Position numbers and translations under genes: made by a program. A DNA stretch of 64,000 nt. Source: an uncultured Bifidobacteriaceae bacterium (GTDB taxonomy: Bacteria > Actinomycetota > Acidimicrobiia > IMCC26256 > DASPTH01). Positions 19,322-29,398 of the stretch are shown piece after piece. Location: positions 506 through 64,505 of the forward strand of contig CAZDJK010000008.1 of NCBI GenBank assembly GCA_964505725.1. Reading direction: 5' to 3'. The notes beneath the pieces were generated by a model. The model made no database searches, was not told where the DNA came from, and saw only the letters and a program-made list of their open reading frames with translations. Every line of letters begins with the position of its first letter. Positions within the stretch are counted from its first letter, which is position 1.

Positions 19322-22300
19322 TTAGTTCCCCCGCGGCTTCTTCGCGGGCTGCTTCTTCCCGGGCTGCTTCTTCCCGGGCGCGCGCTTCGTCGGGCGTCGG
19401 GGTGCAACCATGCGCGGCCCCTGCCCGGCGATCGGGCCGTCGCCCAGGGTCCACGCGATCTGGCGGATGCCGGGACCGCCCGCGAGCACGGGCAGGACCG
19501 CGGCCTCGACACCGGCCGCGGTGAGCACCGCCGCCAGCGCGGCGACACCGGCCACACCACCGACCACACCGCCGAGATGGCCCTGCCCGCAGCCGTCGAC
19601 GAGCACCGCGGGCTCGGGCCCGGTCGCGGCCACCGCGTACAACAAGATCGTGCGGACCCCGTCGATGAGCACCTGGGGTGCGGCTGGATCACCCTTGGCG
19701 TCGAGCACCCGTTCGGCGTCGAGCAGCCGCATCGACACCGTCGCGGCCGCGTCAGTTCCCGCCGCGTCGTCGATGATGACCGCGACCGCGTCGACCGGGT
19801 CGGCGAACGTGGTGACCACCTGGGCGGCGGTGACCAGCTCTCGCGCGAGAGCCCAGCCCCCGTCGGCGCGCTCGCGGTTCCAACCCATGCGCGAACCCTG
19901 GGCGTGCACGACTGCGCCGCCCGCGAGCGCGATCCCCCACCCGATCGTCGGCAGTGACTGCCCGCCATACCAGCCCGCGAGCGCGCCGCCGACGGCGGCG
20001 TCGGGGCCTTCGGCGACGACGACCACGCGTTCCGTCGCACGCGGCACTTCGACCGCCGCGTTCGCCCCGTCGGCACCCATGACGCGGTCGTCGAGTACCT
20101 TGCCGCCCGCCGCGAGCGCGAGGACGCGCGTCGTGCCACCAGTGACCGTCAGCGTGTCGGGCACGTCGCCGCGGGGCCGCGTCGGCACCGTGATCACCGC
20201 GAGCTCGCCCTCGTGCAACGCCGCACCGCCTTCGCTCGCATCGGCGCGCGCGGGACCCGGCGACGCCCCGGTGCCCACCAACGCGTCGCTCATCGTCGCG
20301 AGCCGGGCGGTGGCGGGCAGCGCCGGACTCGCGTTGGCGACCGCACCGACCGGGCCGGAGCTGAGCCGCGTCACGGGCGGGGTGCCGACCGCGCTGACCG
20401 TGCGCCCGGACTGCGCCGCGATCGGGGGCTGCACCGCGAGCGCGAGCGGGCCAACGCCCAACGTCGCCGAGCGCACCGAACCGAACGTCGGCGCGGCGCT
20501 CGCGACCGTGCCGGTCGTGTCGGCCACCGACGTGCCCGCGGCCGCGGCGAGCTGCTGCGCGAGCGGCGCGCCCAACACGGCTTGCACGAGCGGCGCATAG
20601 CGCGCCTTCGGCGGCGGATTTCGTTCGACGACCACCGGGGTAACGATCGGCGACACCGCGGCCGGGGTGACCACGAGGTCGTCGGCCAGCGATCCGAACC
20701 GGGGCGCGGCGACGCGCTCGCCCCGCAACGCGGCCACGGTCGACGCGCCCGTGCCGCCCGCCGCGAGCAGGCGCGCCGCGTGCTCGAACCGCACGCTGGT
20801 ATTGGGGTCGCCCGCTTCGAGGAACGCGGCCGCGTCCTTCAGTTGCGCACTTTCGGTCACGCGCGCGTCGGTGTTCGCCTTGTTGGTGACGAACGGCAAC
20901 GGCTTGCGCTGCCGGTTGAGGGGCAGCTCGATCTGGTGGTAGTCGATCGGCGGCGCACCGGTGAACATCGATTCGGGCAACACCGTGTCGACGGTCAGGC
21001 CGTCGCTCGCGTTGACAGTCTCGCCTTCGGGAACGCGCGGCGCGTTCGGATTCGGCGCCTCACCCCACACGCCCTTCGGGAACGCAGCCGGCGGCCGCGC
21101 CCCGAGCGTGACGAACTGCAGCGTGAACGGCTGCGGCTCGACCGACGCGAGCGTCAGGGTCAGCGTCGTGTCCAGCGTCGCGCTGTACATCGGCGCGACC
21201 CCGAGGTCCGGGGCAGGCACCGACGCCGACTTCGACTCGCCGTCGCGCGCGAGCACGAGCTGTTCGGCGGGCGCGGTACTCACCATCGTGAGCTGGAACT
21301 CGGGCGCGACCCGGAACGGATGGTCGACGCTGCCGTCGGGCGGCTTGTCCTGCCCGCCGCCGTCCGAGCCGCTCGCCTTTCCCGCCACCAGCGCGCCGCG
21401 GATCACGGCCGCCTGCACGACCTGCGCGTCCTTGTCGCCCCGGAGGTACTTCTGCGCGAACTCGACGTTCGTCAGCGCCTTGTCAGCCGGGTTGCTCTGG
21501 TCGCCGAACTCGAACGGGATGCCGACGCCCATCACGCTGAAGTGGCCGGTCACGAAGATCGGCGGACCCTCCACCTTGACGTCGACGCCGAAGCTGAGCT
21601 CGAGATCGACGCTGCCGAACAGCAGCCAGATCGTGATGCCGACGTCGACCTCGGCGTAGACCTCGACCGAGAACCAGAACGGGTCGAAGAACACGATCGC
21701 GTCGCCACCGAACGCGAGCCGCGCGTGCGCGGGACCAATGTGGGCCGCGACCTCGATCCCGACACCGGCCATCAACGCTTCGGAGCACAGCGCGAAGTAG
21801 ACGCCGCCCTTGACGCTGATGAAGTCGGCGGGCTGCCAAGTGAGCCCCACGCGCGGCACGACCGGATACCTATCGTGGTGGAAGCGCGGGTGATAGCCGC
21901 CGACAGTCACCACGAACTGGCCCGCGTTCGGACCCTTCCACCACGTCTCGAACGCGAAGCCGCCGATGAGGCGCACGCTCTTGTCGAGCAGCCACGAGTT
22001 CTCCGTGAGCTGCGCCTGCACCAAGAGCAACCCCTCCTTGGTGGAGAAGCGGGCGAGCAACGCGAGCTCGATCGACACGAGCGTGAGCTCTGGCGCGGGC
22101 AGCTCGGCGCGCGCGAGCCCGAGGATGGCGATGTCGAGCCCGTCGCCGAACTGCACGGTCACGACGATCTCGCCCGTGATGAGCACGAAGCTCGTGAAGC
22201 TGATCCCGGCCGCGACCCAGTACTGGCCCTGCGCGGGCTTGACGATCTCGCGCATCGCTTCGAGCTGCACCATCGGGTCGATCGGCGGTCCGAGCGCGCG

Positions 22301-29398: not shown

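Follow-up and report, generated by a model that had tools for sequence, protein, structure and literature searches.

The DNA stretch analyzed here (64,000 nt in full, referred to as the window) contains a single open frame of 10,077 nt on its minus strand. This locus raises two questions: whether the frame encodes a protein at all and, if so, what a protein of 3,358 residues would do for the cell that carries it.

The giant open reading frame as a gene

19322..29398, minus strand: giant gene, encoding a putative scaffold protein of the DUF6603 family (3,358 aa plus stop; ATG start)

Translation of the frame revealed no internal stop over its 3,358 codons, and a random frame of the same composition would stay open for this length with a probability of approximately 3e-26. 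The preliminary description of this DNA had cautioned that length proves nothing here, as antisense shadows of more than 1,000 codons occur in the window. Such shadows indeed reach 1,288 codons, for example in an ORF inside the giant gene (20213-24079, plus strand, 1288 aa), and high-GC genomes are prone to long false frames, so the giant frame could be a chance or antisense frame, or a pseudogene, without a real protein product. However, coding-type GC3 is seen in the giant frame alone. GC content by codon position equals 0.746/0.534/0.903 over the whole gene, with GC3 between 0.88 and 0.94 in each 300-codon block, whereas long ORFs in other frames or on the opposite strand show permuted values (e.g., 0.92/0.51/0.70), as expected for shadows. 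This GC3 (0.90 overall) agrees with the high value noted earlier, and the Ala/Gly/Leu/Val-rich, Arg-poor composition was likewise borne out (Ala 15.9%, Gly 12.1%, Leu 11.9%, Val 10.6%, and Arg 4.4%, versus 6.4 to 7.3% Arg in neighboring proteins). The start and stop codons are coupled as described: the ATG overlaps the stop of the upstream gene (ATGA), and the stop is followed by a ribosome-binding site and the start of the downstream gene (TAA-GGAG-N8-GTG).

The search for full-length homologues yielded collinear relatives of 3,240 to 3,480 aa in dozens of genomes from at least six bacterial phyla, including 48 complete loci, and the identical protein is present in a public NCBI assembly. Amino acid conservation is uniform along the full length of the alignment, which suggests that every part of the giant is under selection, and no hypervariable region or variable toxin domain was seen along it. 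This conservation across phyla refutes a spurious frame, to which we assign a negligible probability. By its coding GC3, coupled junctions, and cross-phylum conservation, the giant is a genuine gene.

The giant gene is part of a six-gene cassette

The unit of interest at this locus is not the lone giant ORF but the six-gene cassette to which it belongs. The five other genes are the following.

29395..30108, minus strand: p237, first gene (the ORF extends to 30174; start uncertain)
17246..19309, minus strand: p687, invariant partner, starting 12 nt past the giant stop, behind GGAG
16197..17249, minus strand: p350, invariant partner, with a GTGA overlap with p687
12310..16200, minus strand: p1296, invariant partner, ATGA-coupled
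8901..12302, minus strand: p1133, last gene, with its true start at the GTG at 12302 after TAG-GGAG

The genes are translationally coupled, and the order p237, giant, p687, p350, p1296, p1133 is the same in all loci whose length allows it to be read. In 51 loci, the giant is immediately preceded by a p237 homologue; p687 and p1296 are syntenic in 67 and 62 loci, respectively, the latter with a mean column identity of 46%. The true start of p350 is the GTG at 17249 rather than the start of the 557-aa ORF, since homology is limited to ORF residues ~200 to 555 and the reading of the junction supports the later position. No conserved gene precedes the cassette, and scanning the operon ends for promoters and terminators gave no hits.

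The partner proteins gave no Pfam match at the curated thresholds and no NCBIfam, PHROGs, or PADLOC match beyond noise. Sequence and profile searches of the PDB with the giant (alignment A2), p687, p1296, p350, p237, and p1133 returned nothing credible, two profiles of p1296 included, and no paralogy was detected among the six proteins. For p237, the single hit was to DpdF in PADLOC-DB (15 bits, E 9e-4), which we regard as noise. All 1,796 homologues of p687 are named hypothetical; its AlphaFold2 (AF2) model has a pLDDT of 70, with a confident N-terminal domain (aa 1 to 240). The product of p1133 shows sub-threshold matches to Sortilin-Vps10 and to the F510_1955 glycosylhydrolase family, together with SxDxGxxW-like motifs, and is a probable BNR/Asp-box-type beta-propeller protein. 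In the Kribbella locus, a 1154-aa gene closes the operon in the position of p1133. Structure predictions cover only ~1,600 of the ~7,060 cassette residues.

The genes p687 and p350 are adjacent or fused, which may resemble wedge pairs of the TssF/TssG type. The cassette could then encode a diverged phage-tail-, baseplate-, or Tc-toxin-like particle that assembles in the cytoplasm and is subsequently released, with p687/p350 in wedge-like roles and the last genes serving as fibers. The absence of signal peptides, as in tailocins and Tc toxins, would fit such a particle, as would the Tail Collar and Gp10_C protein and the adjoining Kelch genes of some related operons (see below). However, Pfam, PHROGs, and NCBIfam detected none of the expected components in any of the six proteins (sheath, tube, spike, baseplate-J, gp25/gp6-type baseplate proteins, VRP1/TcA, and RHS/YD), and profiles of the giant, p687, p350, p1296, and p237 did not retrieve a solved chain of a baseplate, CIS, T6SS, or Tc toxin. 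Foldseek gave no match in the PDB for the p687 model (best E, 0.08), so that, as far as this model allows, a TssF/TssG- or gp6/gp7-like identity of p687/p350 is rejected. In addition, no relative exists among 50,697 phage genomes and 2.9 million viral contigs (IMG/VR), which also led us to reject an origin from virion proteins, and the PQQ and Peptidase_S74 neighbors bear signal peptides of their own and may be unrelated. A particle of this kind is thus very unlikely. The resemblance to Tc (ABC) toxins, which are likewise sporadic and combine several very large signal-less proteins, a beta-propeller component, and large beta-sheets, would be an analogy only: in contrast to Tc toxins, the cassette lacks VRP1/TcA, RHS/YD, SpvB, and hypervariable toxin domains, and its proteins show no profile match to solved Tc chains.

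Domain organization of the giant protein

From the N to the C terminus, the giant consists of repeat modules, a pseudo-lipase, further modules, the DUF6603 beta-meander, and a conserved C-terminal region.

26996..29371, minus strand: first cryptic alpha/beta module block, aa 10-801 (hhalign self-comparison)
26027..26584, minus strand: family-I-lipase-like alpha/beta-hydrolase domain, aa 939-1124 (profile A11)
23873..25729, minus strand: second cryptic module block, aa 1224-1842 (hhalign self-comparison)
21395..22852, minus strand: DUF6603 domain, aa 2183-2668 (Pfam PF20248), the most conserved part of the giant
19325..21394, minus strand: conserved C-terminal region, aa 2669-3358 (alignment of 28 homologues)

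The preliminary description had seen no repeat architecture typical of known giant proteins. This holds for the known repeat families: at E ≤ 0.1, Pfam gave no Ig, cadherin, YD, RTX, or NRPS/PKS domain, NCBIfam and Pfam gave no carrier, condensation, KS, or AT domain, and the only DNA tandem repeat reported by TRF is a 15-nt unit in 2.9 copies (19336-19379) in the basic C-terminal tail, so that adhesin, Rhs, RTX, and PKS/NRPS proteins were correctly set apart. The protein does have repeats at the profile level, however, where self-comparison uncovers cryptic modules of ~200 to 240 aa between residues 10 and 1,842, which are unrelated to the Ig, cadherin, RTX, and Rhs families. In the first block, modules with approximate limits of aa 10-170, 177-384, 400-650, and 648-801 share the recurring motif L-x-D-P-x(6)-W-L, and hhalign of alignment A2 against itself pairs residues 411-556 with 648-795 (E 9e-12), 229-431 with 452-668 (E 1e-9), and 93-300 with 321-524 (E 8e-9). 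The modules of the second block (approximately aa 1224-1430, 1468-1666, and 1686-1842) are related to each other (1289-1429 versus 1686-1842, E 6e-7) and to the first block (168-364 versus 1221-1418, E 8e-7). Self-comparison of the operon partners, which are equally rich in Ala and Gly, served as a negative control and gave nothing below E 0.07. Along the giant, the hydrophobic periodicity is alternately of alpha and beta type, with a change roughly each 200 aa.

Between the two blocks lies a lipase-like domain without the catalytic Ser, which goes beyond the preliminary description. Profile A11, built from relatives that keep the nucleophile Ser, matches Burkholderia and Pseudomonas lipases in the PDB over ~160 aa (E 2.6e-10 to 1e-9) and matches aa 939-1124 of the window giant with an E of 6e-22; lipases are found in the PDB only by profiles that include Ser-retaining relatives. 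Weak Abhydrolase_1/PGAP1 Pfam matches also occur in relatives. With A11 as the intermediate, aa 939-1124 are homologous to family I lipases, the nearest being those of families I.1/I.2 (Burkholderia glumae/cepacia and Pseudomonas aeruginosa LipA; 1qge, 1tah, 1cvl, 3lip, and 1ex9). Both share the strand-elbow-helix at the nucleophile, followed by an LxTxGTPHxG segment. Unlike these lipases, the giant's domain is embedded at residues 939-1124 of 3,358 aa, has Gly in place of the nucleophile Ser and Tyr in place of the preceding His, and comes with neither a secretion signal nor a Lif-type foldase gene. The nucleophile elbow reads LVAYGGTG in the window giant and LVAHS[TSVI]AG in Ser-keeping relatives, and a motif census found the Ser in 15 of the 82 full-length representatives. 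As judged from this Ser-to-Gly exchange, the domain of the window giant is a pseudo-lipase. Downstream of the elbow, no invariant Asp or His was found in the Ser-retaining relatives, and the PDB lipase alignments end ahead of the Asp/His region. As the Ser is absent here and the Asp/His of the triad are not identified even in Ser-keeping relatives, lipid binding by the giant would be an extrapolation.

The DUF6603 domain matches profile positions 1-473 of 502 of PF20248 with 383.8 bits (E 1.5e-114; gathering score, 27 bits), and conservation peaks here at 0.6 to 0.8. The giant had been presented as unlike known giant families; the DUF6603 match and the full-length homologues weaken this claim somewhat, although membership does not explain the giant, as the family is catalogued without a known function. 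The AF2 model of the domain (pLDDT 80.9, and >90 over most strands) predicts an amphipathic meander made up of ~28 long antiparallel beta-strands, plus a short helical insert near aa 2354-2385. Coevolution, with gappy columns removed, supports adjacent hairpins and gives no signal for first-last strand pairing, both at an Meff of only ~138. Foldseek searches with this model returned SlpA, FimD, ApoB100, LptD, and porins (E 3e-5 to 1e-3), with TM-scores of only 0.1 to 0.24, so the fold may be something else; against viral structures, only generic beta-rich matches appeared. The invariant residues of the C-terminal region extend up to G3277. At the end of the giant come a hydrophobic stretch that is not conserved (aa 3274-3306) and a tail rich in Lys and Pro; the final ~50 aa are gappy in the alignment.

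The size of the giant and the outer membrane barrels that top the Foldseek list might suggest a conventional giant surface adhesin or outer membrane beta-barrel protein. Giant barrels and belts such as Deinococcus SlpA, FimD/PapC ushers, LptD, SprA, and ApoB100 do share long, next-neighbor antiparallel amphipathic strands with DUF6603. However, the giant has no anchor or adhesin repeats, and a sequence scan found no N-terminal hydrophobic segment and no signal peptide, consistent with the earlier description. Monoderm Actinomycetota and diderms alike carry this protein, and DUF6603 occurs in Bacillota and haloarchaea, i.e., in organisms without an outer membrane as well; since the family extends to these hosts, a BAM-dependent barrel is incompatible with its distribution. 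With TM-scores of at most 0.24, this already disfavored option is highly improbable. Instead, the giant, without a signal peptide or conserved transmembrane helix, is presumably made in the cytoplasm.

Distribution and short-type systems

DUF6603 is matched by 4,005 clusters at 50% identity. The cassette is hosted by Actinomycetota, Alpha-, Beta-, and Gammaproteobacteria, Acidobacteriota, Gemmatimonadota, and Methylomirabilota, and phyla are intermixed in the DUF6603 domain tree, which points to horizontal transfer of the cassette between phyla. In addition to the giant type, short-type systems of three to four genes are found in Nocardia, metagenomes, Paenibacillus, and Streptomyces plasmids. 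Their DUF6603 protein, of only ~900 to 1,200 aa, is followed by p687/p350-like and p1296-like partners, as in the giant type, but has neither the N-terminal arm of 2,000 aa, which bears the repeats and the lipase-like domain, nor most of the C-terminal region. The p350 homologue is fused to that of p687 in four of these systems (L081, L082, L089, and L091), and homologues of p1296 are present as well. By homology, the invariant core, short systems included, is a trio of the DUF6603 protein, p687/p350, and p1296. On a plasmid from haloarchaea, a DUF6603 gene lies in a similar cluster, whose partners gave no match to the cassette partner profiles; a short-type version is likely present in haloarchaea. 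The archaeal cluster also contains a separate 244-aa gene with a weak LCAT-like match and a YDWR motif.

The genomic contexts of the two types bear on a possible role in anti-phage or anti-mobile-element defense, in which a cytoplasmic complex would sense infection and, through damage to the cell's own membrane, kill that cell or halt its growth (abortive infection). In favor of this role, the cassette is accessory and spreads horizontally, both bacteria and archaea contain DUF6603 clusters, and short-type copies reside on plasmids, one between tyrosine recombinase/integrase genes and another near a Fic toxin. The missing export signals would suit an intracellular role, and lipase-type modules are a known kind of defense effector. 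However, five of the six proteins have no PADLOC match, and the DpdF hit of the sixth, p237, is at noise level. Neither an NTPase nor a nuclease nor another type of sensor or effector domain is present in the cassette proteins, and ~7,060 structural residues far exceed any known defense system. Moreover, the upstream neighbors at 45 giant-type loci are ordinary housekeeping genes, and the flanks show no enrichment of mobile elements or defense genes. A defense role therefore appears unlikely.

Proposed role of the cassette

We tentatively propose that the giant cassette encodes a lipid- or membrane-engaging multiprotein assembly, possibly for membrane attack or perturbation in biological conflict. 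The giant would be the scaffold subunit of a self-contained, horizontally moving six-gene cassette, the products of which may join into one large complex with no recognizable enzyme domain in this clade. For docking onto or into a bilayer or another lipid surface, this complex could use the lipase-derived module together with the amphipathic beta-sheet, and the variable last gene, here a beta-propeller, would provide target binding. Ser-keeping relatives may represent an enzymatic form, and the window giant a binding-only form. Engagement of a membrane is supported by the Foldseek neighbors of DUF6603, which comprise only membrane barrels and the ApoB100 belt that wraps lipids, and by the lipase homology and the weak LCAT-like match in the archaeal cluster. 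Target binding is supported by the binder-type accessory genes of other cassettes, as a phage Tail Collar and Gp10_C protein is encoded inside the operon of some short-type cassettes, with Kelch genes adjacent.

The same similarities could reflect handling of endogenous lipids, in which the giant sheet and the lipase-derived domain would coat, organize, or transfer the cell's own lipids, for example at storage-lipid bodies or membrane domains, by analogy with apolipoprotein-type belts or bridge-like lipid-transfer proteins. The ApoB100 beta-belt and LptD among the Foldseek matches, the lipase ancestry of aa 939-1124, the lack of export signals in all proteins, and the chromosomal housekeeping surroundings are consistent with this. 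On the other hand, the distribution is sporadic and shaped by horizontal transfer, and the searches found neither a membrane anchor nor a match to AsmA/TamB, DUF490, or any other lipid-transfer family; in the giant, Pfam shows no AsmA/DUF490, and the N-terminal hydrophobic helix of that type is lacking. An unchanged housekeeping role would also be unexpected across diderm, monoderm, and probably archaeal cells, whose lipids and envelopes differ. We consider this role unlikely.

Within the membrane-engaging assembly that we favor, a toxin-like attack or perturbation, on the membrane of a competitor or of the host itself, would be more plausible than a housekeeping function. A conflict role seems the most likely one because the cassette is accessory, sporadic, and transferred across phyla, with its short form on plasmids. 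Against it stand the location of giant-type cassettes among housekeeping genes, with no obvious conflict islands, and the absence of a variable toxin domain in the giant. The route to an external target is a further difficulty, as the six cassette proteins include no signal peptide, conserved transmembrane helix, export gene, or lysis gene.

Significance of the DUF6603 cassette

More broadly, the DUF6603 cassette could be a previously unrecognized megadalton machine with little or no enzyme content that acts on membranes in a manner unlike tails, Tc toxins, and secretion or defense systems. Its center would be a protein of ~3,300 aa that combines a module derived from lipases with a giant beta-sheet of new fold. 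The cassette is spread horizontally across at least six bacterial phyla, with related DUF6603 clusters in Bacillota and haloarchaea. Literature searches on DUF6603, PF20248, and giant genes gave nothing relevant, and no paper found mentions DUF6603 or PF20248. The novelty lies in the function and the system, as the sequence family is already catalogued as a DUF.

The lipase-like domain and its Ser-retaining relatives provide a first experimental handle, and the short form of three to four genes offers a tractable minimal system. Genetics is possible in cultured carriers, including Kribbella soli, Marinobacter, Variovorax, Microbacterium, Mycolicibacterium stellerae, Streptomyces, and Paenibacillus polymyxa. 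Across many bacterial phyla, ~21 kb of strongly conserved coding sequence is kept and exchanged, in ~4,000 clusters. Only one small part of the cassette resembles any characterized protein, which we read as a sign that a chapter of prokaryotic cell or conflict biology is still missing.

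The giant gene and its operon

The six genes of the cassette lie in the following operon order, with names that approximate protein length:

29395-30108, minus strand: p237, first cassette gene, about 237 aa, start uncertain
19322-29398, minus strand: the giant, 3,358 codons, ATG start, translated without internal stop
17246-19309, minus strand: p687, GTG start behind GGAG
16197-17249, minus strand: p350, true start the GTG at 17249, 350 aa
12310-16200, minus strand: p1296, ATG overlapped by the end of p350 (ATGA)
8901-12302, minus strand: p1133, last cassette gene, GTG start

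The junctions, read directly, are tightly coupled. The p237 stop lies inside the giant start codon (ATGA), a GGAG separates the giant TAA from the p687 GTG 12 nt downstream, the p687 stop overlaps the GTG at 17249 (GTGA), and another GGAG stands between the p1296 TAG and the p1133 GTG at 12302. A mechanical 557-aa ORF was rejected as the extent of p350; it is too long, since homology begins at approximately ORF residue 200.

The giant is a real gene, as the preliminary description had held. Its three codon positions have GC contents of 0.746/0.534/0.903, all 300-codon blocks have a GC3 of 0.88-0.94, and an open frame of this length would arise by chance with P ~3e-26 at this composition. The protein is rich in Ala, Gly, Leu and Val, acidic (D+E 328 versus K+R 192) and low in Arg (4.4%, versus 6.4 to 7.3% in its neighbours), and a search for an N-terminal hydrophobic segment found none. 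A frame-plot check had been proposed in that description; codon-position GC compared across overlapping frames gave a coding-type profile for the giant. Three ORFs that overlap it were rejected as genes because their profiles are permutations of the giant's (0.92/0.51/0.70 for the first):

20213-24079, plus strand: shadow ORF, 1,288 codons
25701-28337, plus strand: shadow ORF, 878 codons
26814-29300, minus strand: shadow ORF, 828 codons

That the giant frame is itself an artefact is extremely improbable.

Other genes in the window surround the cassette:

6455-8101, minus strand: fusion of a cyclic-nucleotide-binding domain and a pyridine-nucleotide-disulphide oxidoreductase, just downstream of the cassette
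30947-32092, plus strand: 381-aa gene with good coding GC3
32233-32796, plus strand: YCII-domain gene, directly before the sigma-factor gene
32804-34024, plus strand: ECF-type sigma factor with DUF6596, directly after the YCII gene

The fusion gene is probably a separate transcription unit. The YCII/sigma-factor pair, encoded on the other strand upstream of the cassette, is not conserved beside it in other genomes, and the 381-aa gene has no match in Pfam, NCBIfam, PADLOC or PHROGs and no homologue in 80 related loci. ORFs 39586-41142 (minus) and 40481-42388 (plus) overlap by ~660 nt, both with coding-like GC3; the call or the start of one or both must be in error, and the latter (635 aa) has no Pfam match.

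A conserved and mobile cassette

The giant contains one Pfam domain, DUF6603 (PF20248; aa 2183-2668, E 1.5e-114), and has no match in NCBIfam, PADLOC, PHROGs or PDB sequences; the literature searched does not mention DUF6603 or PF20248. An exhaustive search of the domain against 1.84 billion cluster representatives returned 4,005 proteins at E<=1e-3, with 2,462 reaching E<=1e-30; many have 3,200 to 3,600 residues and carry the domain at ~2,100-2,700. By homology, the giant thus belongs to a large uncharacterised family.

One genome per species was scanned, which gave at least 596 related loci; 80 of them were fetched. In tblastn with the six window proteins, cassette genes and order were the same in every sufficiently long locus; in Kribbella soli, a 1,154-aa gene ends the operon in the p1133 position. 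The search for full-length homologues and the mapping of conservation, also proposed earlier, showed giants collinear from residue ~11 to ~3,350, mostly 3,240 to 3,480 aa when complete, with 30-39% identity across phyla and 59% for the closest relative. Conservation is even (majority fraction of 0.43-0.57 per 100 aa), and peaks at 0.6-0.8 over aa 2,100-2,600; variability is confined to the last ~50 residues. In the closest relatives (L062, L002) and in a third locus, L086, the giant is in some assemblies joined to the gene upstream or split into several ORFs, probably through sequencing frameshifts in long high-GC genes; such frameshifts would account for the many 300- to 960-aa DUF6603 fragments in protein databases.

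Hosts include Actinomycetota, Alpha-, Beta- and Gammaproteobacteria, Acidobacteriota, Gemmatimonadota and Methylomirabilota. No conserved gene lies upstream of p237 in the related loci, where the upstream neighbours are ordinary housekeeping genes. In a neighbour-joining tree of the DUF6603 domain, phyla are intermixed: Methylomirabilota, Gemmatimonadota and Acidobacteriota fall within betaproteobacterial clades and Marinobacter within an actinobacterial one. The mixing points to horizontal transfer, although metagenome bins supplied many of the sequences. Overall, the cassette is rigidly conserved, coupled and horizontally mobile.

Short-type systems define a core

Short DUF6603 proteins (~870-1,210 aa) cover the equivalent of giant residues ~2,000-2,800, and their genes adjoin p687, p350 and p1296 homologues in Nocardia, metagenomes, Paenibacillus and Streptomyces; the p687 and p350 homologues are often one fused protein of 640 to 740 aa. 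Since these three- or four-gene systems keep all three components, DUF6603, p687/p350 and p1296 are the invariant core. Some short-type systems are plasmid-borne, in Paenibacillus polymyxa and in Streptomyces. On one Streptomyces plasmid (L092, S. europaeiscabiei), tyrosine recombinase sets at 5602-9224 and 27024-29170 flank the cassette, a pattern that suggests carriage by an integrative element.

A similar cluster, with a DUF6603 gene of 1,214 aa, is found on a haloarchaeal plasmid (L090, Halalkalicoccus). The gene's 1,137-aa neighbour has, by eye, a p687-like N-terminal motif; the partner genes do not match the p687, p350 or p1296 profiles. A 3,124-aa BGTF surface-domain protein (21413-30787) follows this archaeal cluster.

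One short-type operon contains an extra gene for a phage Tail Collar and Gp10_C protein, and another is followed by Kelch and PQQ propellers and a Peptidase_S74 protein; of these, the PQQ and S74 products come with signal peptides of their own and are perhaps unrelated neighbours. A diverged tail-like or Tc-like particle is nevertheless improbable for the cassette, which has no relatives in 50,697 phage genomes and 2.9 million viral contigs. On the P. polymyxa plasmid p-YT9A (L089), a cluster at 454-7002, ~8-14 kb upstream of the DUF6603 operon, holds two baseplate-V/VgrG-like genes, DUF4280 (PAAR-like), a GH-E nuclease and an ankyrin gene, and a PLD-like protein (25042-26118) lies ~2.5 kb downstream.

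Domain architecture of the giant

At aa ~990-1040 (VVLVAYGGTGHAAR...LVTLGTPW), the giant has a stretch that looks like the nucleophile elbow of a lipase, minus its serine. Divergent members read LVAHS[TSVI]AG...AR...L[IV]T[LVI]GTPHxG, and 15 of 82 full-length representatives have the serine-type motif. A profile of this region matches Burkholderia and Pseudomonas family I lipases in the PDB over ~160 residues (E 2.6e-10 to 1e-9), aligning the motif to LIGHSQGG...TTIGTPHRGS; a full-length profile of 14 divergent giants finds the same lipases and nothing else, and two or three of the 14 give weak Pfam Abhydrolase_1/PGAP1 matches. The window giant matches the lipase-region profile at aa 939-1124 (E 6e-22), with Gly in place of Ser and Tyr in place of His at the elbow. 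The segment is therefore lipase-derived and predicted to be inactive as a serine hydrolase in the window protein. A search for the Asp and His of a triad, made on serine-retaining relatives, found no invariant Asp or His downstream. In L090, a separate 244-aa gene (10209-10943) with a weak LCAT match and a YDWR motif resembles the N-terminal portion of such a lipase, with no obvious nucleophile.

An AlphaFold2 model of aa 2000-2900 (75 sequences; mean pLDDT 80.9, pTM 0.67) predicts ~28 strands of 7 to 19 residues, next-neighbour antiparallel, over aa ~2155-2633, with a helical insert at ~2354-2385. Coevolution (225 sequences, Meff 138) supports adjacent hairpins, scoring 1.0-2.3 for strands 21-28 (99th percentile of non-adjacent pairs, 0.86), and gives no evidence of first-last strand closure. 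The strand sequences give the sheet a hydrophobic face and an opposite face that is polar or acidic. The architecture is modular and includes a pseudo-lipase domain and a large amphipathic beta-meander. Foldseek against the PDB returned SlpA (2.8e-5), FimD, ApoB100, LptD, porins and SprA, at TM-scores of 0.1-0.24, and viral models gave generic beta-rich matches only. An adhesin or outer-membrane barrel is very unlikely for the giant: none of the six cassette proteins has a signal peptide or conserved transmembrane helix.

Self-comparison of 300-residue profile segments (28-sequence alignment) detected cryptic repeats, with significant similarity for example between aa 411-556 and 648-795 (E 9e-12), 229-431 and 452-668 (1e-9), 93-300 and 321-524 (8e-9), 1289-1429 and 1686-1842 (6e-7), and 168-364 and 1221-1418 (8e-7). 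Composition does not account for them, because the same comparison between the six equally Ala/Gly-rich operon proteins gave E 0.07 at best. Hydrophobic periodicity alternates between helix-like and strand-like approximately every 200 residues. The DNA has no tandem repeats apart from a C-terminal 15-nt x2.9 unit. That unit encodes a Lys/Pro-rich tail, PGKKQPGKKQPAKK (19325-19400; aa ~3333-3358), preceded at aa 3274-3306 by the sole strongly hydrophobic stretch near the C terminus. Neither is conserved in homologues; a lineage-specific role for this end, as a tail anchor or in nucleic-acid binding, is conceivable.

Partner proteins and possible role

The 1,796 p687 homologues are all named hypothetical; one, from a soil-type metagenome contig, is 100% identical. 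The p687 model reaches pLDDT 70, with a confident N-terminal domain, and lacks a structural neighbour in the PDB (best E 0.08); profiles of p687, p350, p1296 (two versions) and p237, with p1133 as a single sequence, found no solved structure. p1133 shows sub-threshold BNR/Sortilin-type propeller matches and Asp-box-like motifs.

We tentatively propose that the cassette products would form a single assembly that engages lipid or membrane, since lipase ancestry, an amphipathic sheet and membrane-barrel and lipid-belt Foldseek neighbours point that way; against this stand the low TM-scores and the missing export route. The same lipid-related features would suit endogenous lipid handling, an unlikely reading; the accessory, mobile distribution suggests a role in conflict rather than housekeeping. 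That distribution would also suit a defence system, an equally doubtful assignment for a cassette whose giant has no PADLOC match. Structure models cover ~1,600 of roughly 7,060 cassette residues, and a fuller structural analysis may still tie the system to a known machine. As a sequence the giant is not new, its family being already catalogued as a DUF; the cassette system, of which no tested feature fits any characterised class, is with moderate confidence categorically new.
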